A stretch of 64,000 bases of DNA from Mobula hypostoma. Its lineage: Eukaryota. The DNA lies in NCBI RefSeq assembly GCF_963921235.1, contig NC_086097.1:135844001-135908000 (forward strand). Reading direction: 5' to 3'. A program made the translations under genes and the position numbers. The notes beneath the pieces were generated by a model. The model was not told where the DNA came from, searched no databases, and was given only the letters and a program-made list of their open reading frames with translations. Positions 2,720 to 49,800 of the stretch are shown piece after piece (the stretch's first letter is position 1; every line of letters starts with the position of its first letter).

Positions 2720-2920
2720 CACAGAATGATAAAAGCCTGGAGGAACTCAGCAAGTCAGGCAGCATTTATGGGGAGAAATGGACAATTGACTGAGTCCAGT
2801 CTAGATAAAGGGTCTCGACCCGAAGCTTCAACTGTCCAATTCCCTCCATAGATGCTGCCTAACCTGTTGAGCTCCTCCAGCAATTTGTGTGTTGTTCCAG
2901 GTTTCAGCATCTGTGTATCC
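2720..2920. mobile_element. Fold-back Penelope pLTR-derived short element with a decayed hammerhead
   Basis: Inverted arms about 2737-2790 / 2828-2882; centre CAGTCTAGATAAAGGGTCTCGACCCGAAGCTTCAACTG. Confidence 0.75.
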
Positions 2921-3077
2921 AGCCGCAAATTAACATTGAGCCATAGAAGATCTAAGCTGGATGAGTGACTTTAGGGTGCTGGACTGAGGTGGGAGCCCCC
3001 AGTTAAACTATTGTAGTCTCTCTGGTAAAGGTGCTGCTGGAAAAGGGGTTTCAGGATTTAGACCCAGTAATTAATCT

Positions 3078-3645
3078 GTATCAGGATCAGAATATCAGGT
3101 TTATTATTAATAAGATGTGTTGAAAAATTTGTTGTTCTTTGGCAGCAGTATAGTGGAAGACATAAAAAATTACAATAAAGTAAATAAATAAATAGTGCCA
3201 AAGTGAGGTTGTGCTCAAGGATTAATGGACCGTTCAGTAATCTGATGACGGAGGGGAAGAAGCTGTTCCTAAAACATAGAGCATGGGTGTTGAGACTTCT
3301 ATACCTCCTCCCTGATGGCACTAGTGTGAGGAGGACATATCCCGAGTGGTAAGGGTCTTTGATAACGGATGCCGCCTTCTTGAGGCAGTTCCTTTTGAAG
3401 GTGTCCTCAATGATGGCCTGTGATTGGGGTGGCTGAGCCAATAATCCTCTGAAGCCTCCTCTGATCCTCCTGTGCATTGGAGCCTCCATACCAGACGGTG
3501 TTGCATCTAGTCAGATGGTTCTCCACCGTTTAGCTGTAGATACTTGCTAGTCTTCAGTGACATAGCAAAGCTCCTTCATATTCCGAATGAAGAGTGGCCA
3601 CTGGCCTGCCCTCTTCGTGACTGCAGCAATATGTTGGGCCCAAGA
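3078..3645 (-). mobile_element. Rex1/Babar LINE 3' fragment
   Basis: IKDPYHSG..LVPSGRRYRSL..FRNSFFPS C-terminal motif; GATTCT-like tail. Confidence 0.85.
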
Positions 3646-3812
3646 TGAAGGGAAGGTGAGATATTTCCAGGACCAGGTGATGAGAAACTCTGGTTATCTT
3701 GCACCCGCTGCTCTCATCCCCCCTCATGTAGAGGCTGCAGGGTCCTCAGTATCTTGTCTCAGTCACCCTCAATACCAGTCATTAAACTAAAAAGCAAAGG
3801 TGGTTTACTTAC

Positions 3813-3919
3813 GTGTAACAAGAACTTACTCTGAAAAGCAGCACTTCTTCCAGTGGTTTCCCTAAAGAAGCAGGAGATGGAGAACACTTCTTTGAAGCCA
3901 TGGAGCAATACATAGAGGG
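3813..3919 (-). pseudogene. Possible exon remnant
   Basis: AG at 3920-3921; two GTAAGT donors (3824-3829, 3807-3812); open frame PSMYCSMASKKCSPSPASLGKPLEEVLLFR(VSSCY). Confidence 0.3.
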
Positions 3920-5840: not shown

Positions 5841-5957
5841 TACTCTACAGTCTAGGCTCTGGAAGACAGGTATAGTAACACAAAGCAATGAATCTCGAAC
5901 TGGGTAAAACACTGATATGTATTATTCACTTGAACCCAACACATAGGACTGGGCAAC

Positions 5958-6172
5958 ATCTACAAAATGCTGAAGGAACTCAGCAAGTCAGGCAGCTTCT
6001 ACGGAGAGGAATAAGCAATCAACAGTTCAGACTGAGGTCTTTCATCAGAAGACTCGGCCCGAAACGTTGACTGTTTATTCCCCTCCATGGCTGCAGCCTG
6101 ACCTACTGAGCTCCTCCAGCACTTTGTGTGTGTTGCTCAACATTTCCAGCAACTGCAGAATCTCTTGTGTTT
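5958..6172. mobile_element. Fold-back Penelope pLTR-derived short element
   Basis: Inverted arms either side of about 6050; contains hammerhead 3' half CGGCCCGAAACGTTGACTG (6056-6073) and a decayed minus-strand copy. Confidence 0.8.
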
Positions 6173-6700: not shown

Positions 6701-7679
6701 TGTTTCTCATGTTGTGTATAGATATTAAGTTTGGTATCACCTACAAAGAGAGCCCAAGCCTTGTCAGTGGGAGTCATTGATTCAAGAAAAGAGGAACAGC
6801 TTTAAATGATTTATGCCTGAGTCTAACCATACTAGAGTTTGTAAACAGGCTGAATTATTTCATGATATCAGCTGAATGTGTCCTGTGGGGTGAACATCAC
6901 AAAAAAAACTCCAGTCTCTCTGTCTCTCAGTAGTGCTTGATAAAGAAATCAACAGGCAGTCAAGCTAAAATTGCCTCACAATCCTGCCAATTCTTTTGTG
7001 CGACTTGTTACCAGGCATGGATGGAGTGAAATAAGAGAGTAGGAAATAGGAGAAGGAGGAGATCTTTCAGTCCCTTATTCAACAAGACTACGGCTGATCT
7101 GAAAGCTAAAATTCTGCAGATGCTGGAAACCCGAAGGAAAAACAGAAAATGCTGGGAAGTGGTAGTGGAGGGAAAATTAATGTTTCTGATGAATGATTTT
7201 TGACCTGAAACATTAAGTCTGTTCCAAGGATGCTCCTTGTTTTGCCAAGTATCTTAAATAGCTGTTATTTACCTCACTGACATTTTTCTGCTTATCTTCA
7301 CAGTGCTCAATTTCTCTACAATCCAGAATATATCAGTCTGAGTTCTCAATGAACTAAAATATCTGAGCCTCCACAGGGTCCAGAGTTCATCTCTGAGTGA
7401 AGAAGTGTATCCTTAGCTCAATCCTAGATCTGTCCCTTACTCTGAGAACATAGCCCCTCTAGATTCAAGCAGAGGAAACATCCACCTTGTCAAGACTTCT
7501 GACAACTTTGTGTGCTTCAACAAGTGTGAGCCCAGAAGCAGATGGGACAGGCTTGCTAGGCAACACAGATGACTTGGTGTGAAGAGCCTGCTTCTGTACT
7601 GTATGACTCTATGATTCTTTCTTCACATCTGCTAGTCTCCCACATGCAGTAGAATATAAGAGCTGAGACTTTATAAAAT

Positions 7680-8135: not shown

Positions 8136-8150
8136 CTAATACTCTCATTG

Positions 8151-11505: not shown

Positions 11506-12692
11506 ATCAGAATCAGAATCAGGTTTAATATCACTGGCATATGTCATGAAATTTGTTAACTTCACGGCAGCAGTCCAATGCCATACATGATCATATAGAA
11601 AAAATAAGTAATTCAATTACAGTATATATATATATAAAATAGTTAAATTGAAAACAGTGCAAAAACAGAAATAATATTAAAAAGTGAGCAACACACACCA
11701 AAGTTGCTGGTGAAGGCAGCAGGCCAGGCAGCATCTCTAGGAAGAGGTACAGTCGACGTTTCCGGCCGAGACCCTTCATCGGGTAAAAGTGAGGTAGTGT
11801 TCATGGGTTCAATGTTCATTTAGGAATTGGATGGCAGAGGGGAAGAAGCTGTTCCTGAATTGCTGGGTGTGTGCCTTCAGGATTCTGTATCTCCTTCCTG
11901 ATGGAACCCATGAGAAAAGGGCATGCCCTGGGTGACGGGGGTTCTTAATAATGGACGTTGCCTTTCTGAGGCACCACTACTAGAAGATATTCTGGATACA
12001 ACAGAGGCTAGTACCCAAGGTGGAGCAGACTAATTTAACAACTTTCTGTTGTTTTCAGTCCTGTACAGTAACCACCCCCCGCCCCATTACCAGACAGTGA
12101 TACAGCTGTCAGAATGCTCTCCATGGTACATCTATTGAAGTTTTTGAGTGTTTTAGGTGACAATCCAAATCTCCTCAAACTCCTGATGAAATATAGCTGC
12201 TGTCCTGGCTTCTTCACAGCTGTATCAATATGATCGATATGTTGGGACCACGTTAGATTCTCAGAGATCATGACATCCAGGAACTTGAAATTGCTCACTC
12301 TCTCCACTTCTGATCCCTCTATGAGGACTGGTTCATGTTTCCTCGTTTTACCCTTCCTGAATTCCACAATCAACTCTTTTGTCTTACCGATGTTGAGAGC
12401 AAGTTTGTTGCTGCAACGCCACTCAACTAGCTGGTTTATCTTGCTCCTATACACCCTCTCGTATCTGTCTGAGATTCTGTCAACAACAGTTGTATCATCA
12501 GTGAATTTATAGGTGGCACGTGAGCTATACTTAGCCACACTGTCATGGGTATAGAGAGAGTAGAGCAGTGGGCTAAGCGCACATCCCTGAGGTGTGCCAG
12601 TGTTGATAGTCAGCAAGGGGGAGGTATTATTACCAATCCACACAGATTGTGGTTTTCTGGTTAGGAAGTCGGGGATCCAGTTGCAGAGGGAG
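11506..12692 (-). mobile_element. Rex1/Babar LINE, 5'-truncated
   Basis: ORF 12035-12739 has CNWIPDFLT, GTPQGCALSPLL and YKFTDD; (GATTCT)n tail at about 11506-11522. Confidence 0.9.
11689..11784 (-). mobile_element. Short Penelope pLTR-derived insertion starting at the hammerhead core
   Basis: TSD AAAAGTGAG at 11680-11688 and 11785-11793; minus strand reads CCGATGAAGGGTCTCGGCCGGAAACGTCGACTG. Confidence 0.85.
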
Positions 12693-16451: not shown

Positions 16452-19400
16452 TCAGAACCACGCCCCAGCCTTCCCTCCATACCCCTTGACCCCTGTAGCC
16501 ACAAGGGCCATACCTAACTCCCTCTTAAACATAGCCAATGAACTGGCCTCAACAGTTTGCTGTGGCAGAGAATTGAACAGATTCACCACTCTCTGTGTGA
16601 AGAAGTTTTTCCTAATCTTGGTCCTAAAAGGCTTCCCCTCTATCCTCAGACTGTGACCCCTCGTTCTGGACTTCCCCAACATCGGGATCAATCTTCCTGC
16701 ATCTAGCCTGTCCAATCCCTTTAGGATCTTATACGTTTCAATCAGATCCCCCCTCAATCTTCTAAATTCCAACGAGTACAAGCCCAGTTGATCCAGTCTT
16801 TCTTCATATGAAAGTCCTGCCATCCCAGGAATCAATCTGGTGAACCTTCTTTGTACTCCCTCTATGGCAAAGATGTCTTTCCTCAGATTAGGGGACCAAA
16901 ACTGCACACAATACTCCAGGTGTGGTCTCACCAAGGCCTTGTACAACTGCAGTAGTACCTCCCTGCTCCTGTACTCGAATCCTCTCGCTATAAATGCCAG
17001 CATACCATTCGCCTTTTTCACTGCCTGCTGTACCTGCATGCCCACTTTCAATGACTGGTGTATAATGACACCCAGGTCTCGTTTCACCTCCCCTTTTCCT
17101 AATCGGCCACTATTCAGATAATAATCTGTTTTCCTATTTTTGCCACCAAAGTGGATAACTTCACATTTATCCACATTAAATTTCATCTGCCATGAGTTTG
17201 CCCACTCACCCAACCTATCCAAGTCACCCTGCATCCTCTTAGCATCCTCCTCACTGCTAACACTGCCGCCCAGCTTCGTGTCATCCGCAAACTTGGAGAT
17301 GCTGCATTTAATTCCCTCATCCAAGTCATTAATATATATTGTAAACAACTGGGGTCCCAGCACTGAGCCTTGCGGTACCCCACTAGTCACCGCCTGCCAT
17401 TCTGAAAAGGTCCCGTTTATTCCCACTCTTTGCTTCCTGTCTGCTAACCAATTCTCCACCCACACCAATACCTTACCCCCAATACCGTGTGCTTTAAGTT
17501 TGCACACTAATCTCCTGTGTGGGACCTTGTCAAAAGCCTTTTGAAAATCCAAATATACCACATCCACTGGTTCTCCCCTATCCACTCTACTAGTTACATC
17601 CTCAAAAAATTCTATGAGATTCGTCAGACATGATTTTCCTTTCACAAATCCATGCTGACTTTGTCTGATCATTTCTCCGCTTTCCAAATGTGCTGCTATC
17701 ACATCCTTGATAACTGACTCCAGCAGTTTCCCCACCACCGACGTTAGGCTAACCGGTCTATAATTCCCCGGTTTCTCTCTCCCTCCTTTTTTAAAAATTG
17801 GGGTTACATTAGCCACCCTCCAATCCTCAGGAATTAGTCTAGAATCTAACGAGTTTTGAAAAATTATCACTAATGCATCCACTATTTCTTGGGCTACTTC
17901 CTTAAGCACTCTAGGATGCAGACCATCTGGCCCTGGGGATTTATCTGCCTTCAATCCCTTCAATTTACCTAACACCACTTCCCTACTAACATGTATTTCC
18001 CTCAGTTTCTCCATCTCACTGGACCCTCTGTCCCTTACTATTTCTGGAAGATTATTTATGTCCTCCTTAGTGAAGACAGAACCAAAGTAATTATTCAATT
18101 GGTCTGCCATGTCCTTGCTCCCCATAATCAATTCACCTGTTTCTGTCTGCAGGGGACCTACATTTGTCTTTACCAGTCTTTTCCTTTTTACATATCTATA
18201 AAAGCTTTTACAGTCCGTTTTTATGTTCTCTGCCAGTTTTCTCTCATAATCTTTTTTCCCCTTCCTAATTAAGCCCTTTGTCCTCCTCTGCTGAACTCTG
18301 AATTTCTCCCAGTCCTCAGGTGAGCCACTTTCTCTGGCTAATTTGTATACTACTTCTTTGGAATTGATACTATCCCTAATTTCTCTTGTCAGCCACGGGT
18401 GCACTACCTTCCTTTGATTTATTCTTTTGCCAAACTGGGATGAACAATTGTTGTAGTTCATCCATGCAACCTATAAATGCTTGCCATTGCATATCCACCG
18501 TCAATCCTTTAAGTGTCATTTGCCAGTCTATGTTAGCTAATTCACGTCTCATACCTTCAAAGTTACCCCTCTTTAAGTTCAGAACCTTTGTTTCTGAATT
18601 AACTATGTCACTCTCCATATTAATGAAGAATTCCACCATATTATGGTCACTCTTACCCAAGGGGCCTCTCACGACAAGATCGCTAATTAACCCTTCCTCA
18701 TTGCTCAAAACCCAGTCCAGAATAGCCTGCTCTCTAGTTGGTTCCTCGACATGTTGGTTCAAAAAACCATCCCGCATACATTCCAAGAAATCCTCTTCCT
18801 CAGCACCTTTACCAATTTGGTTCACCCAGTCTACATGTAGATTGAAGTCACCCATTATAACTGCTGTTCCTTTATTGCACACATTTCTAATTTCCTGTTT
18901 AATACCATCTCCGACCTCACTACTACTGTTAGGTGGCCTGTACACAACTCCCACCAGTGTCTTCTGCCCCTTAGTGTTACGCAGCTCTACCCATATCGAT
19001 TCCACATCTTCCCGGCTTATGTCCTTCCTTTCTATTGCGTTAATCTCTTCTTTAACCAGCAACGCCACCCCACCTCCCCTTCCTTCATGTCTATCCCTCC
19101 TGAATATTGAATATCCCTGAACGTTGAGCTCCCATCCCTGGTCACCCTGGAGCCATGTCTCTGTGATCCCAACTATATCATAATCATTAATAACAATCTG
19201 CACTTTGAATTCATCCACCTTATTACGAATGCTCCTTGCATTGACACACAAAGCCTTCAGGCGCTCTTTTACAACTCTCTTAGCCCTTGTACAATTATGT
19301 TGAAAAGTGGCCCTTTTTAATGCTTGCCCTGGATTTGTCGGCCCGCCACTTTTACTTTTCTCCTTTGTACTTTTTGCTTCTATGCTCACTTTACACCCCT

Positions 19401-19485
19401 CTGTCTCTCTGCACTGGTTCCCATCCCTCTGTTGTGAACTAACCTCCTCATGCCTAGCCTCTTTAATTTGATTCCCACCCCCCAA
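16452..19485 (-). CDS. CR1 ORF2: APE endonuclease plus reverse transcriptase, single frameshift at about 18415
   Basis: NARS, GITETW, GDFN and SDH (18376-19485); PGPDG, YRPVSLTS, DFQKAFDKV, QGSVLGP and FADD (16452-18461). Confidence 0.95.
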
Positions 19486-19491
19486 CCATTC

Positions 19492-20449
19492 TAGTTTAAA
19501 GTCACCTCAGTAGCCCCCGCTAATCTCCCCGCCAGGATATTGGTCACCCTACACAAAAGTGTAACCCATCCTTTTTGTACAGGTCACGCCTGTGCCAAAA
19601 GAGGTCCCAATGATCCAAAAACTTGAATCCCTGCCCCCTGCTCCAATCCCTCAGCCACGCATTTATCCTCCACCTCATCGCATTCCTACTCTCACTGTCG
19701 CGTGGCACAGGCAGTAATCCCGAGATTACTACCTTTGCAGTCCTTTTTCTCAACTCCCTTCCTAGCTCCCTATATTCTCCTTTCAGGACCTCATCCCTTT
19801 TCCTACCTATGTCATTGGTACCTATATGTACCACGACCTCTCGCTCCTCACCCTCCCACTTCAGGATATCTTGGACACGATCAGAAATATCCTGGACCCT
19901 GGCACCAGGGAGGCAAACTACCATCCGGGTCTCTGGACTGCGTCCACAGAATCGCCTATCTGACCCCCTTACTATCGAGTCCCCTATCACAACTGCCCTC
20001 CTCTTCCTTGCCCTACCCTTCTGAGCTACAGGGCCAGACTCTGTGCCGGAGGCACGGCCACTGTTGCTTCCCCCGGGTAAGCTGTCCCCCCCAACAGTAC
20101 TCAAACAGGAGTACCTGTTGTTAAGGGGCACAGCCACCGGGGTACTCCCCATCACCTGCCTTTTCCCCTTCCCCCTCCTAACCGTGACCCACTTATCTGC
20201 CTCCCGTGGCCCTGGCGTGACGACCTGCCTTCCACTCCTCTCTATCACCTCCTCGCTCTCCCTGACCAGACGAAGGTCATCGAGCTGCAGCTCCAGTTCC
20301 GTAATGCGGTCCCTTAGGAGCTGCATCTCGATGCACTTGGCGCAGATGTAGACGTCCGGGAGGCTTGGAGACTCCAGGGCCTCCCACATCTGACACCGAG
20401 AACAGCAAACTGCCCTCACACTCATAATGCCCCTCTCCTCAAATAGCAA
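19492..20449 (-). CDS. CR1 ORF1: zinc finger/leucine zipper plus SGNH esterase; 1-nt frameshift near the C-terminus (about 19550)
   Basis: CSRC..CAKC, LELQLDDL, VIGDSIVR, HIGTND and DGLH; natural end TNILAGRLAGATEVTLN* lies in a shifted frame. Confidence 0.9.
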
Positions 20450-21733
20450 CAGAAAATGAATGTCAAACCTTCCTCGCCTCGCCCGCTTCCGCCTAAGCCC
20501 GTTGAGCCGAAGCCCTTAAGTCTTCACTGTGCTCCCGGCTCACTCCGCCGCCCGCAAACTACGCTGCCCGCTCTATGAGGCTTTGTTCCTTTTAAATCTG
20601 CCGCGCTGCACTGCCCGACGTCACACGCCTGCGCAGTCCCGCCTCTCAGAAAGCCGTTGGAGAAAAAAAATAACGAAAATTTCAAAAATCTCTTTCTCGG
20701 CACTCCCACTCAGACTCTCAGACTCCTTCTTCGAATCAAACCCGAAGCAGGATGATGGGGATCTTTGATGCAGAACGTTCCCTTCTTGAGAGACCACCTC
20801 CTGTAGGTACCACTGATGGTAGAGAGAGACGTGCCCGTGATGTATTTTGCAGAGTCTACTGCTCTCTAGTCACCATCCATTCATGCAACCTCCAACCAAT
20901 CAGAATTGGCCGCTGTAAGCTGGAAGGCAAAGACAGCAACGTGTGGTCCTCCACGTCTACCCGCATCCATATTGTGGAGTGCTGTTCTTCTGGAGAAGGT
21001 TGAAGCAAGTCCAGTGAAGAGCTAGCCACTCCCCCAGCCATCATGTGCACTCCCAGCCTAACACAGGATCAATACTGTAACACGATCTCAGGATCTGTCT
21101 AAGTCCAAGATTTGCAACTGGTCAGAATGATGGCTCCCAGCTGCTAACTGTTGAACCAAAATCAAGACTTTTAATGCATGACAGCAAGATCACAATCACA
21201 ATTCCTGGTGGAGCCATTTTTAAATAAGTTAATGTAGCAAACTGGTTTTCAAGTAAAGTACTATTCAGGGATAAAAGAAATTATTTCTAGTCCCTGGACA
21301 AACAGAGCAACACAGTTCCCAGACCTCATTAGAAAAAAAAAGAATTGAAATCTTGTCAAATGTGTGGAGTCTGGAGGATTTCAATAGCACTACTGTAGAG
21401 CAGTTTTGAAAGCAGTAGCAGGGATGTGTCTGCCCTGGAGACAATCTGTTGTACAGGAGCGTCTCTCCTATTATCTCCTCCACATCAAACTCAAGCAGCA
21501 CCACCCCCGAGGCTGACTAACATTTTTCCGATAATTGCAAAAATAGCTGAAGAAAATATAAGGACCCTACTCAAGTTTTACAAAGTTGAACGTGAGAAGT
21601 GTAATTTTCACTGACTCCACAAAGCTTATAAGTCGTTTGTCTTTTGAAATTTGTTGCATCACATGCCTGGGAGCATTTAAATGAGTCTACAGCTAACATG
21701 GTGAATGAGAGCCATCAAACATAGCACCGACTT

Positions 21734-22300
21734 ACACTCAGTGACCATTCTTACTTTAGTAGGTACCTCCTGTACCTAATAAAGTGGCCACTGAGTGTAT
21801 GTTTGTGGTCTTCTGCTGCTGTAGCCCGTCCACTTCAGGGTTAGACATGCTATGTACCCGGAGATGCTCCTTTGCACCACTGTTATAATGCATGGTTATT
21901 TAAGTTACTGTCGTCTTCCTGTCAGCTTGAACCAGCCCGGCCATTCTCCTCTGACCTTTCTCATTTACAAGGCACTTTAGTCCACAGAACCACCACCCAC
22001 AGGTTTTTTTTTTTGTTTTTCGCAGCATTCTCTGTACACTCTAGAGACTGCTGTGTATAAAAATTCCAGGAGATCAGCAGTTTCTGAGGTACTCAAACCA
22101 CCCCATCTGGCACCAACAATCATTTTTGGGTCAAAGTTGCTTAGATCAAATTTCTTCCCCATTCTGATGCTTGCTTTGAACAATGACTGAACCTCTTGGC
22201 CATGTCTGCATGTTTTTATGCATTGAGTTGCTGCCACATGACTGGCTGATTGGATATTTGCATTAATGAGCAGGTATACTGGTGTATCTGAATGTATTGC
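21734..22300 (-). mobile_element. Non-autonomous Tc1/mariner derivative carrying the transposase N-terminus
   Basis: TA-CACTCAGTG..CACTGAGTG-TA mini-palindrome at 21734-21799; MGKKFDLSNFDPKMIVGARWGGLSTSETADLL HTH in ORF 21977-22237. Confidence 0.75.
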
Positions 22301-22518
22301 ACCATCTTCATTGATGTAGAGCTGCAGAGGAACAGTCCAATAGGCCCATTAGCTCCTACGACTTTGTATCCTTCTCCTTCAAACCCCCAATGCTTCCCTC
22401 TCCACACCTTCTACCAATCCTTCCTCATCTAAGACTCTCTGGCTGTCCCTCGAAATCACTGCAACACTTTCAGTGTGCTGGATGAACTCAGCAGGTCAGG
22501 CAGCATGTTAGAAACGAT

Positions 22519-22556
22519 GAGTCAACGTTTCGGGCCGGAACCCTTCGTCAGGACTG
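22519..22556 (-). ncRNA. Minimal type I hammerhead ribozyme motif
   Basis: CAGTC-CTGACGA-AGGGTTCCGGCCC-GAAAC-GTT-GACTC: intact core, stem I AGTC/GACT, stem II GGG/CCC, palindromic AACGTT in place of stem III. Confidence 0.8.
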
Positions 22557-22762
22557 AAGAATGAAAGATGGGGAAGGATTTGAAGAATGCTTGTAGCTTC
22601 AGTTGAAAGACCAGTAATTTGAAAGACAAAGGGGTGGGGGAGGGGAAGCATTGACGTCATAACCCTGAAAACAATAGGTAGTAGACGAAGGAGGCGGAAC
22701 CATGAGGGAGCTGGGGGAGGGGGTAGAGTGAAATAGGGATAGAGGAAGGGAGGGGGAGGGAA

Positions 22763-24590
22763 TTACCGGAAGTTGGAGAATTCTATGTTCATACCAAAGG
22801 GCTGGAGACTACCTAGATGGTATATGAGGTGTTGCTCCTCCAACCTGAGTTTAGCCTCATCATGGCAGTAGGAGAGGCCATGTATGGACATATCTGAATG
22901 GGAATGAGAAGCAGAGTTGAAGTGGGTGGCTACCGGGAGATCCTGTCTGCTGTGGCGGACAGAGTGGAGGTGCTCGACGAAGCGGTCCCCCAATCTGCGT
23001 CGGGTTTCACTGATGTAGAGAAGGCCGCACCGGGAGCACCGGATGCAATAGATGACCCCAACAGACTCACAAGTGAAGTGTTGTCTCACCTGGAAGGACT
23101 GTTTGGGGCCCTGAATGGTGGCAAGGGAGGAGGTGTAGGGACAGGTGTAGCACTTACGCTTACAGGGATGAGTGCCGGGTGGGAGATCTGTGGGGATGGA
23201 CGTGCGGATAAGGGAGTCACGGAGGGAACGATCCCTGCGGAAAGCGGAGAGCGGCAGAGAGGGAAAGATGTGCTTAGTGGTGGGGTCCTGTTGAAGGTGG
23301 CGGAAGTTGCGGAGGATAATGTGCTGGATCTGGAGGCTGGTGGGGTGGTATGTAAGGACAAGGGGAACTCTGTCCCTGGTGTGGTTGCGGGAGGATGGGG
23401 TGAGGGCCAAAGTGCGGGAAATGGAGGAGATGCGGGTTAGGGTATCATTGATGACGGTAGAAGGGAAACCATGATCCTTAAAGAAAGAGGACATTTGAGG
23501 TGTCCTGGAACGGGAAACCTCATCCTCGGAGCAGATGCGGTGGAGATGGAGGAACTGGGAATAGGGAGTGGCATTTTTGCATGTGGTGGGCTGGGAAGAG
23601 GTATAGTCGAGGTAGCTATGAGAGTCAGTGGGCTTGTAGAAGATGTCAGTGGACAGTCTGTCTCCAGAAATGGAGACCGAGACATCAAGAAAGGGGAGAG
23701 AAGTGTCCGAGATAGACCAAGTGAATTTGAGGGCTGGGTGGAAGTTTGAAGTAAAGTTGATGAAATTGACGAGCTCAGCATGGGTGCAGGAAGCAGCACC
23801 AATGTAGTCGTCAATGTACCGAAGGAAAAGTTGGGGAACAGTACCAGAATAGGTCTGGAGCATAGACTGTTCCACATAACCAACGAAGAGGCAGGTGTAG
23901 CTGGGTCTCGTGCGAGTTCCCATAGCTACACCCTTAGTCTGAAGAAAATGGGAAGAGCCAAAAGAGAAGTTATTAAGTGTGAGAACCAGTTCGAACAACC
24001 GGAGGAGGGTAGTGGTGGTGGGGAACTGGTGAGGTCAATTATCCAGGAAGTAGCGGAGGGCTTTGAGGCCTTCTTGATGGGGAATGGAGGTGTATAAGAA
24101 TTGGACATCCATAGTAAAAATGTAGCAGTTGAAACCAGGGAATTGGAAGTTATTGAAAAGGTGGAGGGCATGGGATGTATCCTGGATGTAGGAGGGGAGG
24201 GACTGAACTATGGGTGACAAAATGGAGTCCAGGTACGCAGATACAAGTTCGGTGGAACAGGAGCAGGCAGAAACTATGGGTCTACCGGGACAGTCAGGCT
24301 TGTGTATCTTTGGGAGGAGGTAAAACTGAGCGGTACAGGGTGTGGGAATAATGAGTTTAGCGGCTGAGGATGGAAGGTCTCTGGAGTTGATAAGGGCAGT
24401 TATGGTGTGGGAGACAATGGTTTGATGTTCTTTGGTGGGGTCCTGTTCCGGTGGTAAGTAAGAGGACGTGTCAGAGAGCTGCCGTTTTGCCTCAGTGAGG
24501 TAGAGGTCCCTCCGCCAGACTACTACAGCACCACCTTTGTCAGCAGGTTTGATGGTGAGGTTGGAATTAGTGCGGAGAGAGTGGAGGGCA
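22763..24590 (-). CDS. Penelope RT + Cys linker + GIY-YIG endonuclease (5'-truncated, one in-frame TGA at 24035-24037)
   Basis: IKPADKG, YLLPKIHK, GRPIVS, MDVQFLYT, GVAMG, RYIDD, CKRKCYTC and VIYCIRCSRCGLLYISET..RFVEH. Confidence 0.93.
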
Positions 24591-24720
24591 TTCTACTACC
24601 CATTGTTTTCAGGGCTATGATGTCAATGCTTCCCCTCCCCCATCCCTTTGTCTTTCAAATTACTGGTCTTTCAACTGAAGCTACAAGCATTCTTCAAATC
24701 CTTCCCCATCTTTCATTCTT

Positions 24721-24758
24721 CAGTCCTGACGAAGGGTTCCGGCCCGAAACGTTGACTC
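24721..24758 (+). ncRNA. Minimal type I hammerhead ribozyme motif
   Basis: Identical 38-nt motif in the inverted pLTR. Confidence 0.8.
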
Positions 24759-24867
24759 ATTGTTTCTAACTGATGCTGCCCGACCTGCTGAGTTCATCCA
24801 GCGTACTGAAACTGTTGCTTTGATCACAGCATCTGCAGATTATTTTGTGTTTACCTCGGAATCACTG

Positions 24868-27431: not shown

Positions 27432-27700
27432 CTGAATCAGAACTGAATTATTCCCAACTGCATTGAAGTGGTTTAGCAGACTAAATGATCTTTTTGTTGA
27501 AAGCCCCTATTCCCCTTGCGATGACTCACCCGAAGGGCAGAACCAAAGTTTTAAACTATTGTGCAACAGCAAACACTTCAATACTCAGTAACTCTTTGAT
27601 AACAGTTCGAATGGCAAATTACTACCAGGTGATAATTAAATCTGGAAATGCCTTTCTTAACTTTTGTTCTTTCTTATGTCTGACTCTTTTCTCTAAGGTA

Positions 27701-29322
27701 CAGTGGCATGCAAAAGTTTGGGCACCCCGGTCAAAATGTCTGTTGCTGTGAATAGCTAACTGAGTAAAGGATGACTTGATTTCCAAAAGGCATAAAGTTA
27801 AAGATGGCACATTTCTTTAATATTTTAAGCAAGATTACTTTTTTATTTCCATCTTTTACAGTTTCAAAATAACAAAAAAGGGAAAGGGCCCGAAGCAAAA
27901 ATTTGGGCACCCTGCATGGTCAGTACTTAGTAACACCCCCTTTGGCAAGTATCACAGCTTGTAAACGCTTTCTGTAGCCAGCTAAGAGTCTTTCAATTCT
28001 TGTTTGAGGGATTTTCGCTCATTCTTCCTTGCAAAAGGCTTCTAGTTCTGTGAGATTCTTGGGCCATCTTGCATGCACTGCTCTTTCAAGGTCTATCCAC
28101 AGATTTTCGATGATGTTTACGTCGGGGGACTGTGAGGGCCATGGAAAAACCTTCAGCTTGCGCCTCTTGAGGTAGTCCATTGTGGATTTTGTGGTGTGTT
28201 TAGGATCATTATCCTGATGTAGAAGCCTCCCTCTTTTCATCTTCAGCTTTTTTTTGACAGACAGTGTGATGCTTGCTTCCAGAATTTGCTGGTATTTAAT
28301 TGAATTCAATCTTCTCTCTACCAGTGAAATGTTCCCCATGCCACTGGCTGCAACACAAGCCCAAAGCATGATCGATCCACCCCTGTGCTTAACAGTTGGA
28401 GAAGTGTTTTTTTCATGAAATTCTGCACCCTTTTTTCTCCAAACATACCTTTGCTCATTGCATCCAAAAAGTTCTATTTTAACTTCATCAGTCCACAGGA
28501 CTTGTTTCCAAAATGCATCAGGCTTGTTTAGATGTTCCTTTGCAAACTTCTGATGCTGAATTTTGTGGTGAGGATGCAGGAAAGGTTTTCTTCTGATGAC
28601 TCTTCCATGAAGGTCATATTTGTGCAGGTGTTGCTGCACAGTAGAACAGTGCACCACCACTCCAGAGTCTGCTAAATCTTCCTGAAGGTCTTTTGCAGTC
28701 AAACGGGGGTTCTGATTTGCCTTTCCAGCAATCTTACGAGCTGTTCTCTTGGAAAGTTTTCTTGGTCTTCCAGGCTTCCACTTGACCTCCACTGTTCCTG
28801 TTAACTGCCATTTCTTAATTACATTACAAACTGAGGAAATGGCTACCTGAAAACACTTTGCTATCTTCTTGTAGCCTTCTCCTGCTTTGTGGGCATCACT
28901 TATTTAATTTTCAGAGTGCTAGGCAGCTGCTTAGAGGAGCCCATGGCTGCTGATTGTTGGGACAAGGTTTGAGGAGTCAGGATATTTATAAAGTTTTGAA
29001 ATTTGCATTACCTGGCCTTTCCAATGACTGTGAACAAGCCATAGCCCTAACAAGCTAATTAAGGTCTGAGACCTTGGTAAAAGTTATCTGAGAGCTCAAA
29101 TCTCTTGGGGTGCCCAAACTTTTGCATGGTGCTCCTTTCCTTTTTTTCCCACTTTAAAATTGTACAAAACAAAAATAATACACTAATCCTGTTTAAAATG
29201 TTGAAAAGAATGTTTCATCTTTAACTTTATGACTTTTGGGAATTAGTTCATCTTCTACTCACTTAACTATTCACAGTAACAGAAATTTTGATCAAGGGAG
29301 CCCAAACTTTTGCATGCCACTG
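27701..29322 (-). mobile_element. Complete Tc1-like DNA transposon, IR/DR type, 1622 bp
   Basis: TA TSDs (27699-27700, 29323-29324); termini CAGTGGCATGCAAAAGTTTGGG; inner repeats at about 27895-27912 and 29108-29125. Confidence 0.97.
27920..28944 (-). pseudogene. Tc1 DD34E transposase with a frameshift (about 28905) and a premature stop (28019-28021)
   Basis: MGSSKQLP..GEGYKKI, GRPRK, WTDE, QDND-34aa-E (SPDVNIIEN); C-terminus VILAKGGVTKY*. Confidence 0.93.
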
Positions 29323-29717
29323 TAATAACTTATCACTCCATTGCGGGTCTGGACCTTGAGTAATCTCAGGCTATTTGACTGTGGGCAACGTTGACAAGCT
29401 TCAACAACTCCTCAGCTCATTTCACCACTGTAAACTCTCACAGCACCAAGCCGACCATCTGGCCAATCAAGCCTCTGCTTATTCTTTGAATCAGCCTCTC
29501 TCCCTGCTCTTTATCCTACAGTGCTGCACCCTTCTCTCTTTCGAGAAAGTTTTGAAAGTTCCTGTTCAACATATTCTTATCAGGTACCAATTTCCCAACC
29601 ACAATGGCTCCCTGCTGAAAAGCCTCCACCTGCCCCTCTCCAGTGCTGTAGATAACTCAGTACATGAGACAATATCAAACCAATTCTCCAGTGTACCATT
29701 TTAACCAGAATGACTGT

Positions 29718-34474: not shown

Positions 34475-36224
34475 TAAAGGAAAGGAGAAATACTTCTGTC
34501 AGGATGGGGTGATCCATATGTCTGTTGAGTTGGGAGATGTGGTTGGGGTAACCAAAGTGAGTAACTGCATTGCATTTTGTAAATGATGCATATTGCAGTC
34601 TTTATGTACCAGGGAAGGATGGAATGAAGATTTAGGGTGGTGGATGGGGTGTCAGTCAAAAGGGTTACTTTATCCGGGATTCAGACACATGTTGGCCTTG
34701 AACTTCTGGATGGTAGAGCCTATTGATTGGAGGTGTGATGTTCTAATATACTCAAAATAACAAAAGATTTATTATTCGGAAACGTCTCTACTTCAATTTA
34801 CACGGGGTAGTGAGGGGGTGGAAGTTGATCCATATTTCCTCAACCGAATGGAAACCCAATATCAAAAGCTATTGGTTTGAAATCCTGAAAGTTTGAGAGT
34901 GTTCCTTAAGAGTAAGGAAGAAGACAAAATCATTTTCCATCTCTTCTCCCCTCAGTTGTTTTAATAGATTCCAAAGAATGAACAGAAGTCTCAGACTCCG
35001 CTAGATTTTTAACTGGCAAGACTTCAGAGGAGAAGATTGGTATTACTTAAAATTCTTCTTCATCCAAAATTATCAAACATTCTGACAAAGAATTCCTGTT
35101 CTGAATCAAACATTTCATGTAAGAAATTATATCACTGTCTAGGAGAAGAAAAGGAAATGTTAGGGTAGTAAGATTTCTTGTCTAGAAATCAATATTAATC
35201 ATGTGTGTAGTATGCAGTGGAATGACCAACTGAATCACACAAAACTGCTGGTGAAATTGAGTGGACATGTGCTCAGTGCAAAGGCATTTTTTACAACATT
35301 GATAAAAAAAGGACCTGTTCCGATCCACTGAGAACTTCTCGACTAGCTCACAGTGAATATATTATTCCTGCCTTTGGATTGCTAGAAAACAACTTTTGCC
35401 CAAGGATAACAGCATCTGCAGATTATTTTGTGTTAACAACTCCAGGATTTCCAATCCAGAATTGTTGGTGAAATTCCTCTAACTAGGGAACATCTATACT
35501 CTGAATAGAATTATCTCAGTGTAATTAGGGAAGTTGAACTGTGTAAGGGTATTGACAGTGGTTATGTTGCCAGTGTGTTTGTGGGGATGATGAACTGGCA
35601 TCTCTCGAGTTGTCTGAGGCTGATGTTGCTGATATCACCACAATAATACTTTGAAGAACTTACTGTATTTGGATTACTTTTGGCATCACCAGGAGTCAAC
35701 ACTGACATTATCACTCCAAATCTTCAACTTCAAGTCTATTGTTGTCAATGGCATACATATAGAGGGTATAGATGCATTGAAAATGAACTTTTTGCAGCAG
35801 CAGCACAGGACAAATAAACATTGACATAAACTTAAGTTAACATAAATTAAACGTAACACCATGTTATAAGTAAATTATATGCACGCGTGCAAAATAATCA
35901 ACAAAATTTAACATAATGACAAAGATGTTCGCCAGGAAGTAACATGGCCTTGACGTTTGGTGACTTGTTGAAAGCTGATCTCTGCTGATCTACTAATCAA
36001 AGACTACTCCCACAGTTACAAGACTATTGAACAGACATCTTGTACATTTAGATGGACCCTTGAGCTTGTGATCTATCTGGTTTTGGCCTTGCACCTTATT
36101 GTCTGTCTCCATCACACTTTCTCTGCAACTACTCTATTCTGCATTCTGTTATGGTTTTCTCCTGTACCACCTCAATGTACTGATGTGACAAAATGATCTG
36201 TATGGATGGCAGACAAATCAAAGA

Positions 36225-36350
36225 GCTGATGAGGGGTCTTGGGCTGATATGCTGACTGCTTAGTCCCTCCAAGGATGCTGCTCAACTTGCTGATTTCCTC
36301 CAGCATTTTGTGTGTGTTGCTTAAGATTTCCAGCATCTGCAAAATCTCAC
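36225..36350 (+). mobile_element. Decayed Penelope pLTR-derived short element
   Basis: Begins CTGATGAGGGGTCTTGGGCTGATATGCTGACTG; ends CCAGCATCTGCA. Confidence 0.7.
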
Positions 36351-36640
36351 GCTCTTAAAGTTGTTCACTGTACCTTGGTACATGTGGCAGTAATAAACCA
36401 ACTTAGCATTTTACCAATAATGACTGCAAACTTCAACCTGTTAGAAACACACAAGCTTAATTAGCTCAATGTTATAGAGTCAAAGGGCTACAGAACACAG
36501 CAGTACAGATACAGGCTTGTCCCATCTACCTGCACCCACCATAGCGCTCTATATCTCATCCATGTGCCTATCCAAACCTCTTAGATGTTGCGATTGAACC
36601 CCCATCCACCACTTGCGCAGGCATCTCGTTCCACACCCAA

Positions 36641-43030: not shown

Positions 43031-45151
43031 ACGGACCTGAGGGGCAACTTCTTCTTCAGACCGTGGGTGGTGGTGGGTTTATGGAATGAGCTGCCAGAGG
43101 GAACTGGTAGAGGTACCCACATCAAACACTTTCTTGTGTTTATGAGGTGGGTACTTCTAAAGAGCATTTGGACAGGTACATGGATAGGAAAGGTTGGATA
43201 AAACAGGAAATACAAGCAAACAGGACTAGCGCGGTCAGGCAACTTGGCTGGCGTGAAGGAGTTGGGCAGAAGGGCCTACTTTTATACTTTGTACTTTATT
43301 GTCGCCAAACGATTGATACTAGAGCGTACAATCATCACAGCGATATTTGATTCTGCGCTTCGTGCTCCCTGGAGTACAAATTGATAGTAAATACTAAAAA
43401 TTTAAATTATAAATCATAAATAGAAAATAAAAAAGGGAAAGTAAGGTAGCGCAAAAAAAACCGAGAGGCAGGTCCGGATATTCGGAGGATATGGCCCAGA
43501 TGCATGGCTCTTCTATGGCTGTATCACCTGATCGCATTATGCCTGTAGGCTCAATTGCTGCAGAGGGGATTCTGCTCTGTCAGACATGCCCTATTTCCAA
43601 TGAGATGCCCTTGAAAGGAAAATCCTACAAAAAATACTGGATATGGCCCAATTCGTTACGGGTAAAGTCCTCCCCACCACAGAGCACATCTACACGGAGC
43701 GTTGTCGTTGAAAAGCAGCATCCATCATCAAAGACCCCTACCACCAGCTCATGCTCTCTTCTTGCTGCCGCCCAGCTGTCTGGTCTCTGGTACAGTATAT
43801 TGTACAACTCTGATGTAGCACGGAAAAGGCCCTTTGGCCCATTGACACTGTGCCAACCATCAAGCACCAATTTTTACATTAATCCTACCCCAGCCCATTT
43901 TATTCTTCCCACATTCCCACCAACTCTCCCCACATTCTGTCATCATCCACACCCGAGGAACAATTTGGCATGGCCTCTTCTTTCCTCTGCTTCTGATTGT
44001 TGTCACCCAGCACAAACTATGTTAATCAGTTATCCCCTTGGCTTAGTTTTGTACCGAGTCTGTGAAGGAAACAGTGATGCGCATTGTCCATACAGAGAAT
44101 GGATATTTCATAGTGATAGAGGAGATTTGTCATGACTTATACAATCTGGCCTTTGCACTTATGGCATGTGGATAGTGAATTAAATCCTTATAATCTAGTT
44201 ATGGAGACACAGAAAATGCAGATGCTGGAATCTAGAGCAGCAAACACGATGCTGGTGCAACTTAGCAGATCAAGCAGCACCTGTGGGGGGAAGGAAGTGT
44301 CTGTGTTGAGTTCTTCTCTGATCTTGGCAATTTACTTACAAATGTTTTGTCACTGTGCAAGGAGACATCGTCAGTGCGCCGTTGATTGGGATGAGTCCTC
44401 CAAATGCTTGGCCTTTATATACTATTTAAACAGGTGATTAGACGTCTTTTTGGAAACTCGGTTGTGATGTGGGGAGGAAATCTCATCGCAGATTGGCTGC
44501 GTGGCGAACTTTGTGCATTGCGGTCTGGAATCTTGCCCACATCGACTCATAAATAGGATCGTCTCAGTTTGAAAACCCTGCAGGACTGAGAGTGAAGAGT
44601 GAAAATAGCATGAAGAAGGACCGTGGGGGACAGTCTCTTAGAATTTCCGTCATCGAGAGGAGAGACTTCACAGTGGACTAGTAAAACAAACACAAGAGAC
44701 TGCAGACTTTGGAATCTGGAGCAACCAAACCATGCTAGAGGAACTCGGTGGGTCAAGCAGCTTCTGTGGGAGGAACAAGAAGCATCACAGTGCATCTGTT
44801 TGTAACATCAGCAATTGATCGTTTGTGAGTTGCTCTGTGACAGGCAGTTATCCAGTGGTGTGACCTAGTGCAACATCAACGCTGTGGAAATCTGACCCGC
44901 TTCTGGAACCTAGGGCCAATTTGGAAGCCATTTTCCTCAACAGTAAGCTGGTGTGTGTTGGCGCAGCTGCCAGGTGCCATGTTTGTTCTTAATAGTGACA
45001 GACGTCACGTGGGTTTATGTTGGAAAATTTTATTATCGAACTGCTGGTCAACCCTGTGCGCGCACAGCCTGGTCAATGTCGCATCTGATGGTTCTGGGTG
45101 AACCTCTTTCATTGCCCACTGGGAACGGAAGTGCTTTATTATGCACACACT

Positions 45152-45432: not shown

Positions 45433-46354
45433 AGTGGAACCTTACGCCATGAGTCTTTTGTGACCGAGCTTAGGAAATCACTGCTTCCTGACACATCCCT
45501 CAGGCCAGCTATAGGTATCTGCCAGACCCCGTCACCTCCTCTGCTCAGTGAGTTTAGACCACTTTTCTCCCACAGGCCTGCACATTCAGGCAGGCTGCTA
45601 GACAGCCCGTTTGATTTACAAGCTCTCCCAAGAGATGGCATTAAAACGTAATGACCAAGACTGCATTTGGTAATCTATTCAATAGGACTATTTAGCAAGA
45701 ACACTCTACACCTCAGGGCAGGCCTGAAGTGCTGTCATCCTGGTTCAGGAGAACAATGAAAGTCATTGCCTTCTTTAGAGAAAGATCATTGTTTTAATGG
45801 TTAATTCTGGTGCATGTTTAATATCAAGTTATCTAATTAGCGCTGGTAACTGCGTTACAAAGCCGCAGTCACAATTCAGTTCTGCTTGCTGACACTGGAA
45901 CATGCTCCCTAAGGGCACATCAGGCCGCAACAGTGACCTTCTTCAAATCAAACAGGGGCAACAACCACCGACCAGACCTCAAGCGAATGTAAGCAGGAAT
46001 GCCTGCCCGGCTAGAGTAGCTTCTGGGGTCCGTGACCAAACAGATTGCTTCAGCCTACAAACTGGTGCTGCCCTCTGTGCTGACACACGTGGAGCAGTAA
46101 ACTGATCACACACCGAGGTACCCTGGCAAACATCTCTGACCTGTCTAACACCAAGCACTCTGCAGATGTGCTACTGAAAGTACTGTAACCTGATGGGTCG
46201 CCTCATGGCCTGGTACGGCAATTCGGATGCACAGGAATGTAAGAAGCTGCAGACAGCAGTAGACTCTGCCCAATACACCATGGGAACATCCTACCCCACG
46301 ATTTGTAGCATCTACAGGAGGTGTTGCCTTAGGAAGACAACACCTACCATCAAA

Positions 46355-46557
46355 CACGAGGAATTCTGCAGATGCTGGAAATTCAAGCAACACACATCAA
46401 AGTTGCTGGTGAACGCAGCAGGCCAGGCAGCATCTGTAGGAAGAGGTACAGTCGACGTTTTGGGCCGAGACCCTTCGTCAGGACTCGGCCGGAAATGTCG
46501 ACTGTACCTCTTCCTATAGATGCTGCCTGGCCTGCTGCGTTCACCAGCAACTTTGAT
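46355..46557. mobile_element. Fold-back Penelope pLTR-derived element inside a Rex1 fragment (about 46160-46875)
   Basis: TSD CTACCATCAAA at 46344-46354 and 46558-46568; near-perfect arms; minus-strand hammerhead at 46449-46486 with GAAA>AAAA. Confidence 0.92.
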
Positions 46558-46876
46558 CTACCATCAAAGATCCCCATTCCATATTCTTGCAGCTACCATC
46601 CAACAGGAAGTACTGAAGTCTTAAGTTCCACACCACAAAGTTCAGGAACAACTACTGCCCTTCAGCATTTTAGTTCTTGAACGCTAATCACTATAATTCA
46701 GCAATACTATGACCACTTTGATTAACTTGCACTAACATGGACTATATTGTGTCTTTTCTTGTAAAAAAAACCATACAATTTATGTTTAACTTATGCTTTT
46801 CAGGTGAAAATTGCTCATCTGATGCTGTACGCCTGTGATGTTGCTGCAAGTAGGGTTTTCATTGCACCTGTGAATA

Positions 46877-49800
46877 TGATGCTAGGCCAGCACAAAGACA
46901 CAGTAAAGCCCTCCCTGATACAAAGACACACTAAAGGCTTCCCTGAAGTTGCTTGACACAGACACGACCTCTTGAGAAACGCTGGCACAAAACTGCCTTA
47001 CCTGGCGTGGTCTTTTCCACAAGGGCTGTCAAGCTTAGGAAGCAAGGCGCATTGCTGAAGCATAACATAAGCGCGAGCTGCGCAAGTCCTGAGTCACCAG
47101 CGCAACAACTGCAGTGCCTACACATGTCTGCCCAACATGTGCCAGGACATTCTGTGCCCGAATTGGCCTGACCAGTCATCTTCCGACACACTGCATCCAG
47201 TCTCAAAGTGACTAATAGTGTCGAGGTCTTCATTGACAACCATGGGCGAACGACAGGCCAGCATAGGCAGGCACCTCCCAGTCTCCATCCAGCGAACTGG
47301 AGTCACCCGCTCATCACCTGCAGCCTAATGAAACCCAGCTCTCATCCACAGTCTTTGTTCACCCATTGAACCAGCCAGCTGCTCCTAGCCTTCAGATACC
47401 TTGTGTTAAGTATCCATTCTCTCTTGTTTAGTGGCACCTCATGGCTTGTTATTTTTCAGTTTATTATTAAAGTGATTGCTCATCGCTAAATCGTCCCTGC
47501 TGCTCTGTGTTTTGGTCATCTTCCTCTAGATTCTGTGACAGAACGAATGAACTCACAATTGGCTCCAGCAGGGTTGGCTCACCTAAAGGAAGCTGTCCGT
47601 CGGCAGGAGCACATGATCCAGAAGCAGCAGGAAACCATTGACCATCTGCTCACCCCTCTCAGCCAACTCTCCGACTTGTTACAGTCATCCCATGCCAGTC
47701 AATCTCTTCCCTCAGAGCATGGCTTCCGGTGCCCGAACACCTTGAGGGATCCCCAACTCGATGTCCAGGGCATCCTGCGCATTAAGCTGTAACTATTTCT
47801 GTATCCTACTGACTGAGCCAAGCATGCCTTTGTAATCTCTCTCTTTACTCAGCAGGCTCTGACCTGGGTCACTGCTAACTGGGTCAATAGAACCACCATT
47901 TTCAATAAATATGAGGAATTCACCACTGTGATGCGCCAGGGTTTTGAACATCTGGGAAGTGGAAGAGAAGCAGTGGATCGGATACTTCTCCACGCTTGGC
48001 ACTGGACTTCAGGACCCTCGCGGTGGAGTGCAACTGAAATGTGGAAGCACTGTTGGTCCATTACCATCATGGCCTCTTGGAGTGCTTGAAAGATGAGCTG
48101 TCTACTGAGGAGATGCCCACCGACCTCGAAAGACTCATCACTCTGGCCTTCTATGTTGACAAGTGTCTTATGGAACGACCCTCCACATCAACAGCCAGAA
48201 AGCCAGAATCCCAGTTCCATTCCCAGAACCACTCCAGGCTGCAGGACCTTCATCATTACTGCATCCAGAACCCAAGCAGTTAGGAAGATCTCCCCTAACC
48301 CCCTCCTCAAGAGTATGAGCAGTGGTGGAGAAACAACTTGTGCGCTTACTGTGGAGCAACTGACCACCCACCTATCAAATGTCTACTGCGTCTGGGAAGA
48401 TAGCATCACTAGCTAGAGATGAGGGATCTTCCATCTGGTAAGCTCCTCCCAGTCCCTCATTCCAGCACCATAACCTGACTCAGTGTCTCTGTTCTCTTCT
48501 GCACCCTGACGGCTCTCTATGCATAGGAGGCTCTGGTGAATTCCAACACTGCTGGCATCTTTCTGCACAGCACTCTGTATGTACAACATGGACTCCCTAC
48601 CAAGCCTAATTCACAAGCACAAAATACTCTGCAGATGCTGGGGTCAAAGCAACACTCACAACATGTTAGAGGAACTCAGCAGGTCAGGCAGCATCCGTGG
48701 AAACAATCAGTCAATGTTTTGGGCCAGTCCTGACGAAGGGTTCCGGCCCGAAATGTTGACTGATCGTTTCCATGGATGCTGCCCGACCTGCTGAGTTCCT
48801 CCAGTGTGTTGTGAGTGAAGCCTAACTCACACTGCTTCTGCATCATGGCCATTGGCAGGCGTCCTTTAAGGTCAGGGATGGTCAGAGCGTGCACACAGTC
48901 TGTGCACATGACCATTGGAGAGCACTGTGAGTCCATCTACCCCAACACTCATCTTGGGTTATCCCTGGCTATCCATTCATGGCCCTCATTTTGCCCAGTC
49001 ATTTAGTTTCCAGCTGAGTTGGGAGCCCACCTGCCTGCGGCCTCAGTTGACCTCACCCTGCAAATCTGTGGAGATGGAGTAAACGTCACCAAATTCCCAT
49101 GGGAATACCATGACTTAGCCATGGCCTTCAGTAAAAGGGAGGCCATCGCCCTGCTGCCTCACAGATCACATGACTGTGCGATCGAACTCCTCCCAGGCAC
49201 CACCCCTCCTCAAGGTTGTGTGTTCTCCCTCTCCCCTCAGGGGCCCAAGCCATGAATGGCTACATTGCTGAAGAACTTCAGCAGGGCTTCATTCAACAAT
49301 CCCAGTCCCCAGCTGGTGCAGGGTTCCTCTTTGTCAAGAAGAAAGATAGGAGCTTTCATCCCTGCACAAACTAACACGGACTCAACAACTTCTGCACTAA
49401 GAACTATTACCTTCTCCCCTCGATGTATAGCGCATTCAATATAATCCGTGACAGCCAGGTCTTCAGCAAAATAGATCCAAGGAGTATGTACAACCTGATC
49501 TGAATCTGCCAGAGGGTTTAGTGGAAGGCAGTGTTCATAGCACCCACTGGCCACTATGATGACTTGGTGATGCCTTTAGGACTTTCCAACACTTTAACCA
49601 TTTTCCAATTCTTCATCAATGAGATTCTCTAAGATAAGCTTCACAGGAATGTGTTCATCGAACTCTCGAAAAATGCCAGTTCCACACCCCAGTCATTTCC
49701 TGGGTTCATTTCCTGGGTTACATCCTTTCACTCCAAAGCATATCCGTGGATCCAGAACAAGTGTGTGCTGTTGTTGAATGACCCTGAGAGCGATCCCTCA

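Follow-up and report, generated by a model that had tools for sequence, protein, structure and literature searches.

Insertions of Penelope-like elements (PLEs) show a characteristic shape, in which 5′ truncation, a head-to-head inverted copy or a solo pseudo-long terminal repeat (pLTR) goes together with a 30–40 bp tail, often at one end only, and with short target-site duplications (TSDs) of variable length (PMC8557442, PMC3846280 and PMC2377424; these and all papers below are cited for the portions of their text that were available). Rotifer Penelopes, for example, have TSDs of 8–10 bp, an inverted pLTR and a one-sided tail of 31 bp (PMC3846280). For PAc, the Poseidon element of Anolis, in vitro work places the tail between two internal start sites of the reverse transcriptase (RT), about 35–40 nt apart and downstream of the ribozyme, and shows that both target strands are nicked and extended (PMC11167929). 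The pLTRs of PLEs carry hammerheads of minimal type I form, which lack loop III and have a palindromic 15.2–16.2 region and one additional base ahead of stem II. Truncated PLEs have been named as the source of motifs that occur singly and dispersed, or as pairs on opposite strands 100–700 bp apart (PMC4209133). Here, we describe insertions of this kind in a single 64,000-nucleotide stretch of the genome of Mobula hypostoma (NCBI RefSeq assembly GCF_963921235.1, contig NC_086097.1, positions 135,844,001 to 135,908,000 of the forward strand; hereafter the window), to which all counts of pLTR loci below refer. It is repeat-rich animal DNA, with fragments of long interspersed nuclear elements (LINEs), a Tc1-type transposase and simple repeats, and it holds one coding PLE copy along with 11 short loci, named below by the first position given in a preliminary description.

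That description proposed either a non-autonomous, retrozyme-like system mobilized by Penelope proteins or the stereotyped product of aborted Penelope integration. The second option fits what we find, namely pLTR identity, variable TSDs and a one-sided tail. We consider it likely that the loci are pLTR-only stubs of several PLE subfamilies, left by independent truncated target-primed insertions, and that the hairpins among them come from two joined complementary DNAs (cDNAs). As a structural class these are truncated PLE insertions, known and ordinary. They differ from the inverted and tailed units in the available text of PMC8557442, PMC3846280 and PMC2377424 in that both arms are only 55–135 bases long with no coding sequence left, and in that their inner ends gather at one edge of the ribozyme, a hot spot not found in that text.

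The coding copy (22462–24853, minus strand) is a 5′-truncated PLE with an RT, a CxxC linker and, at the C terminus, a GIY-YIG-type endonuclease, its reading frame broken by one stop near 24035. It has a direct, tail-less pLTR at its 3′ end and an inverted, tail-bearing pLTR at its 5′ end (24592–24853, plus strand), which spans −162 to +100, with a tail of ~35 nt included; positions in arms are numbered from the predicted ribozyme cut, +1 being the next base. The whole is flanked by a 14-bp TSD with one mismatch (22448–22461/24854–24867). With its longer open reading frame (ORF) piece we found 82 relatives of at least 742 residues, at identities of up to about 50%; RVT_1 is annotated in most of them and GIY-YIG in 20 (manual count). 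The YIDD, CxxC linker and GIY-YIG-type motifs align between the coding copy and these relatives, and linker residues C291, C295 and C298 are invariant in the alignment. A sequence search of the PDB with the coding copy gave 0 matches. By its predicted RT and C-terminal GIY-YIG endonuclease the copy is classed as an endonuclease-bearing PLE, and the Zn-finger-like CxxC linker, used as a criterion in the available text of PMC8557442, would place it with Neptune or Nematis.

Both pLTRs of the coding copy contain a predicted minimal type I hammerhead. The first (24721–24758, plus strand) comprises stem I, core and stem II, with the cut predicted after 24753, and the second (22556–22519, minus strand) has the same form. 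Like the PLE hammerheads of PMC4209133, they lack loop III and have a palindrome (AACGTT) and the additional base ahead of stem II; they differ from those described in its available text in a stem II of 4 bp. In our model 82% of cells are paired, against 20–45% in slid controls; covariation among the 7 distinct copies is not above that of shuffles. An Rfam scan gave no hammerhead match at E≤1, and only sub-threshold miRNA-like matches caused by the hairpins; in annotation, such stubs mimic both microRNA precursors and miniature inverted-repeat transposable elements (MITEs). Both core motifs are exact only in the two coding-copy pLTRs; among the short copies none has both exact, and at most one, at 48616, has a near-complete core, one base off. 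The short loci had been described as hammerhead-bearing, which overstates the case: 6 of 11 span the motif (2720, 5958, 11689, 36225, 46355 and 48616), four loci lack it (25465, 27156, 44206 and 44685), and 7110 is doubtful. The proposal of at least two subfamilies stands, both stem II variants being found among the window copies.

A hidden Markov model (HMM) of the arm recovers all 11 short loci and a further scrap at 35394–35437, and a reversed-window control gave 2 hits, with E of 2.8 and 9. The model was seeded with 10 arms from 8 listed loci, which therefore match by construction; the loci outside the seed are 7110, 25465, 35394, 44206 and 44685. Ten of the 11 are clear pieces of a PLE pLTR, whereas 7110 is marginal, with E 0.013 and a match to its left 27 nt only. 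Five hairpins described earlier were recovered by folding, at 2720 (z −7.7), 5958 (−14.0), 27156 (−10.2), 46355 (−23.0) and 48616 (−20.8). A head-to-head inverted, truncated copy is thus present at 5 of the 11 short loci and in the coding copy, and another 5 of the 11 are single arms. The short copies hold nothing beyond the pLTR except 6–7 filler bases in two of them. Arms of 48616 are 79–86% identical to the coding-copy pLTRs, and those of 11689, 27156 and 46355 are 92–97% identical and form one clade (support 1.0). This one young subfamily yields three structures, a solo arm and two different hairpins, and arms group by subfamily or locus, not by arm side.

The four TSDs of the preliminary description hold up: 9 bp, exact, at 11689 (11680–11688/11785–11793); 14 bp, exact, at 27156 (27142–27155/27296–27309); 11 bp, exact, at 46355 (46344–46354/46558–46568); and 14 bp with one mismatch at 48616 (48602–48615/48818–48831). 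An equal score (9 or more) was reached in 5 of 150 random pseudo-loci. No TSD above chance was found at the other 7 short loci, of which 36225 has a possible 6-bp TSD with one mismatch. A test for empty sites was informative at 2 of 12 loci. The 9-bp TSD word of 11689 occurs once in a related LINE copy, which thus represents the empty site, and the host repeat of 36225 has an empty site in 4 other window copies. Together, the head-to-head copy, the tail at one end and the short TSD of variable length make these inverted and tailed insertion units of the PLE type.

The outer ends of the arms, some of them extended by eye from printed context, fall into two groups, at +58 to +66 (7 arms) and at about +92 to +103. 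Each of the 6 two-armed inserts, coding copy included, has one tail-bearing and one tail-less arm. The asymmetry noted earlier between a complete and a shortened arm is therefore common to the short hairpins and the coding copy, and it is the one-sided PLE tail already published. The two groups of ends resemble the paired start sites of PAc in bounding the tail downstream of the ribozyme; PAc belongs to another PLE clade, and its sites are AC-rich (PMC11167929, available text), whereas the ribozyme strand in the window is TG-rich at these ends. As a separate observation, the 3′ part of the inverted pLTR (24770–24853) and of other tail-bearing arms forms a long stem-loop. Its apical loop contains or adjoins the tail-less ends, whereas the tail ends lie at the 3′ foot, and both kinds of end are TG-rich. 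Covariation for this stem-loop is weak, with a double change in 3 of 13 pairs and an unfavourable covariation term.

Several of the inner ends lie close to the 5′ edge of the ribozyme. In the young hairpin at 46355–46557 the tail-bearing arm, on the minus strand (46355–46485), reaches −32, and the tail-less arm, on the plus strand, runs from −14 to +58. The hairpin at 48616–48817, of the coding copy's subfamily, has a tail-bearing minus-strand arm that reaches −13 and a tail-less plus-strand arm from −32/−33 to about +61. At 5958 (5953–6172) a tail-less arm reaches −32 on the minus strand (5953–6054) and a tail-bearing arm starts at −14 on the plus strand, with CT at 6053–6054 common to both. 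The old hairpin at 2720–2920 has a tail-less minus-strand arm (2720–~2790) with its inner end at about −3, a filler of ~7 nt, and a tail-bearing plus-strand arm that starts at 2797/2798, or about −33. Two solo arms end in the same region, the tail-less one at 11689–11784 (minus strand, −29 to +66, within a LINE fragment) and the tail-bearing one at 36225 (36224–36354, plus strand, within another repeat), which starts at −28 to −32. The fifth hairpin, at 27156–27295, is ribozyme-less: its tail-bearing arm on the minus strand spans +27 to +103, its tail-less arm on the plus strand +5 to +62, and it holds 6 extra bases. Three further solo arms are tail-bearing, on the minus strand and without a TSD or the ribozyme motif, namely 44206–44301, starting near the predicted cut at +1, 44685–44775, starting near +10, and 25465 (25461–25527; about +29 to +96). 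The remaining short-arm starts, those outside the ribozyme-edge group and its partner arms, are near +1, +5, +10, +27, +29 and +57, and the coding-copy arms reach −162 and about −2070.

Within the window these positions support the earlier claim that inversion or truncation points cluster in or next to the ribozyme: of the 8 arms long enough to include −28, 6 go no further than −33 (P 5e-7 on a constant-hazard null; 9e-6 with a rough ×20 correction). When 2720 and 36225, whose ends were set by eye, are left out, 4 of 6 arms stop there (P 0.002), and by a scan test 6 of 16 short-arm ends fall inside one 6-nt window (P 0.015–0.018). Moreover, 3 of 5 hairpin junctions agree within 1 nt on both arms (−32/−13 or −14; P 0.0004 under a uniform null). 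In two contig runs that covered the coding copy's pLTR stretch (17,256 and 13,751 records), 3 of the 12 joints listed, a minority of all joints, also end at −33 to −31; two runs of raw reads gave 0 records there. It had been suggested that shared junctions would indicate an independently amplifying family. The junction is indeed shared, but the family does not follow from it: the three hairpins, 5958, 46355 and 48616, are about 62–78% alike between loci, and 46355 and 48616 belong to clearly different subfamilies, with 5958, old and less certain, making it two or three. In 46355 it is the −32 arm that carries the tail, and in 5958 and 48616 the −13/−14 arm; with the tail on opposite arms, the junction must have arisen more than once. 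A hot spot of the mechanism is thereby indicated, and not inheritance from a single master copy.

How could such stubs form? Target-primed reverse transcription likely ran for only 45–135 bases, separately for each stub, with a preferred stop that we would place at the 5′ edge of ribozyme stem I. Work on another PLE supplies two elements of this account, namely internal starts at the two sites that flank the tail, and target strands that are both nicked and extended. Both cut strands would then each prime a cDNA, and the two cDNAs, joined head to head by 1–2 bp of microhomology, would give a hairpin. The microhomologies at the junctions are indeed short (1–2 bp, or 4 of 5 bases with a mismatch), and the strongest ones available (4 bp in stem I, 6-bp palindromes at the cut) fail to explain the −32/−14 junction. 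L1 twin priming is comparable, in that two primers leave an inverted, truncated insert inside one TSD; its two cDNAs derive from separate stretches of the RNA, whereas the two arms here correspond to one and the same stretch. The tail lies on whichever arm extends less far inward in 3 of 6 two-armed inserts, namely 5958, 48616 and the coding copy, or in 4 of 6 if 27156 is read literally. In the first three this placement requires either a second cDNA or a hairpin intermediate that was trimmed later. The simplest account would be a pair of target-primed cDNAs, in line with what PAc does in vitro, where both target strands are extended, as the hairpins here require (PMC11167929).

A single cDNA might instead prime itself by fold-back, giving a hairpin with tails on both arms, one of which the endonuclease removes on integration. 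The self-priming step has a precedent among the proposals of PMC3846280, and resolution of the tail by the endonuclease among those of PMC8557442, and the scheme accounts for the strict presence of one tail in 6 of 6 inserts. Its plain version fits 2720 and 46355, and at the latter 4 of 5 bases agree between the cDNA end at −32 and the region from −15 to −19. We nevertheless regard it as unlikely. The plain target-primed version fails for 5958, 48616 and the coding copy, because a cDNA primed at the tail site copies only what it already holds; the cDNA mini-hairpin is unstable; and the tail ends match the two start sites measured in vitro (PMC11167929).

Somewhat less probable still is that longer or perfect palindromes formed first and that their centres were later trimmed by microhomology-guided deletion, so that the junction records DNA repair. 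Such a history accounts neatly for 27156, through a symmetric join at a GTAC palindrome and the later loss of 19 nt from one AGG word to the next, and the shared CT at the 5958/46355 junction would allow deletion from a palindrome centred near −32. Such a palindrome would still require both cDNAs to stop at −32, however, and 11689 and 36225, which are solo arms lacking any partner, start at −28 to −32 as well.

If the stubs are truncated target-primed insertions, as we favour, the recurrent stop calls for a cause. We think that a template 5′ end at the 5′ edge of the ribozyme is somewhat likelier than the other candidates, a preference we hold tentatively; a block by protein or structure at the adjacent splice-acceptor-like tract is possible, trimming after insertion is doubtful, and chance is unlikely. 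It is also possible, if speculative, that the template RNA really has its 5′ end at the −32 wall and that the stubs are complete run-off ('strong-stop-like') cDNAs joined head to head. Synthesis would then start only about 95 or 135 bases downstream, with one cDNA per cut strand and start site, and joining would happen when the jump needed to copy the full element had failed. Were this true, the many such stubs in this genome would record, as fossils do and to the exact base, the intermediate that is missing from Penelope transposition. The stubs themselves were probably dead on arrival.

The surroundings of −32 also resemble a splice acceptor. A pyrimidine tract plus CAG ends at this position, and 243 bases upstream, at the ORF stop, lies a donor-like site; the 5′ end of helix I is where an intron ends in D. 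virilis (PMC4209133, available text). Since 48616 retains the acceptor-like CAG, we rejected for it a template spliced from a donor at the end of the ORF. Two side observations concern this region. In the 3′ untranslated region (UTR) of the coding copy (22766–22554, minus strand), the donor-like site overlaps the stop codon at −243, and the tract with CAG at −31 could mark an intron whose end lies at ribozyme stem I. In other copies, a branch-point-like TACTAAC precedes the −31 place in a loose-end consensus of low agreement from the contig runs.

Several points weigh against our reading, or caution against taking its numbers too firmly. The clustering rests on 18 arm ends from one window, with the ends of 2720 and 36225 set partly by eye, 7110 excluded from the statistics, and null models picked after the data had been inspected. 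A Pfam scan of both ORF pieces of the coding copy gave no family at E≤0.001. The contig joints that end at −33 to −31 have their other end at −2 or +3, and the kind of joint is not stated. One opposite-strand joint lies at −74/−39 and the inverted arm of the coding copy reaches −162, so the stop is not absolute. A step in read depth at the ribozyme (84k to 1,559k, X1) was rejected as evidence, conserved parts of the pLTR collecting other subfamilies; subfamily-specific positions downstream of the step reach 88k–155k only. The −32 base is the A of an initiator-like word, a weak signal with 6 such words in the same UTR. At the shared junction a stable self-priming mini-hairpin of the cDNA is not favoured either (z +0.2 to +1.3). 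Finally, one tail in each of 6 two-armed inserts has a P of about 0.01–0.016 if starts are independent, whereas PAc showed no strand difference in start site in vitro (PMC11167929, available text), which leaves some coupling of the starts unexplained.

The other option of the preliminary description, a non-autonomous retrozyme-like or SINE-like (short interspersed nuclear element) family in which Penelope protein, acting in trans, would copy anew the transcripts of some short or hairpin copies, we judge improbable. It would gain from the junction shared by 3 of 5 hairpins, from young copies that are 92–97% alike with exact TSDs, from the capacity of pLTR sequence alone to support integration in trans (PMC3846280), and from the derivation of retrozymes from pLTRs (bioRxiv 10.64898/2026.07.22.740005). 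Non-LTR retrozymes, like the copies here, are non-coding and pLTR-derived with a type I hammerhead; as described in the available text of PMC7229834 and the same preprint, however, they are head-to-tail tandems with a ribozyme in each unit and a circular RNA, whereas the copies here are solo or head-to-head, with cores mostly broken or absent. The window arm list holds no head-to-tail ribozyme repeats, and no head-to-tail units with a complete hammerhead each emerged from it or from the core check. No sequence outside the pLTR is present, and one subfamily gives three structures. The shared-junction hairpins are too unlike, with differing tail polarity, and arms cluster by subfamily or locus rather than side; many loci with a common junction, polarity and private sequence or mutations, as expected of an amplifying family, are not seen within the window. 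With one ribozyme per strand, a hairpin would also yield no unit-length circle by self-cleavage. Ordinary MITEs of a DDE transposon, despite the short inverted-repeat shape and the Tc1-type transposase in the window, can be dismissed: 5 of 11 loci are single arms, the arms match a PLE pLTR and in a self-comparison show no match to the Tc1 inverted repeats (27699–27912/29108–29324), and where the preliminary description had named fixed-length TSDs with symmetric terminal inverted repeats, or randomly placed junctions, as contrary evidence, TSDs vary (9, 11, 14 and 14 bp), arms are asymmetric and inner ends cluster at the ribozyme edge.

The recurrent stop at the ribozyme edge is possibly new and goes beyond the literature we found. 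Literature searches that left Repbase, Dfam, subscription papers and bioRxiv supplements outside turned up the structure in general, but no mapping of PLE inversion junctions to the ribozyme and no account of such stubs in cartilaginous fish; the supplements of PMC11167929 gave no match. How PLEs form their inverted and tailed structures is called open in the available text of PMC8557442 and PMC11167929. Genome-wide counts of the ribozyme-edge stop, the one-tail rule and the mixed polarity could separate the two-cDNA, fold-back and trimming models.

Some minor features remain. The decayed and doubtful locus at 7110–7270 has a tail match on the minus strand (7110–7158) and a weak hammerhead-like stretch on the plus strand (7186–7212); its hairpin was not confirmed (z 0.0), and its arm match was equalled by 107 of 1000 shuffles. 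The scrap at 35394–35437 (plus strand), absent from the preliminary description, is tail-only, ~40 bp long and a member of the subfamily to which the coding copy belongs; the direct repeat of 7 bp that flanks it is no better than chance. At 27290–27296, the short stretch that separates the tail-less arm of 27156 from the TSD repeats sequence of that same arm in inverted orientation, which may reflect a brief template switch at priming. Viral contigs scanned for extra copies gave 0 matches, as did metagenomes with a long pattern; 120 loci obtained from public collections with a shorter pattern were dropped as chance, their best HMM hits covering only 23–38 bases around the motif. Short hairpins at 26018–26077 and 21730–21802 are unrelated to the pLTR and have only sub-threshold miRNA-like Rfam matches. 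A relic of a Tc1-type DNA transposon (27699–29324) has 217-bp inverted repeats (80%) and a transposase frame at 28019–28903. A long LINE at 16452–20515 has overlapping frames and an RT confirmed by Pfam; a 729-bp piece at 60174–60902 is 95.9% identical to it, and a related element lies at about 50645–53952, all three of which we take to be CR1.

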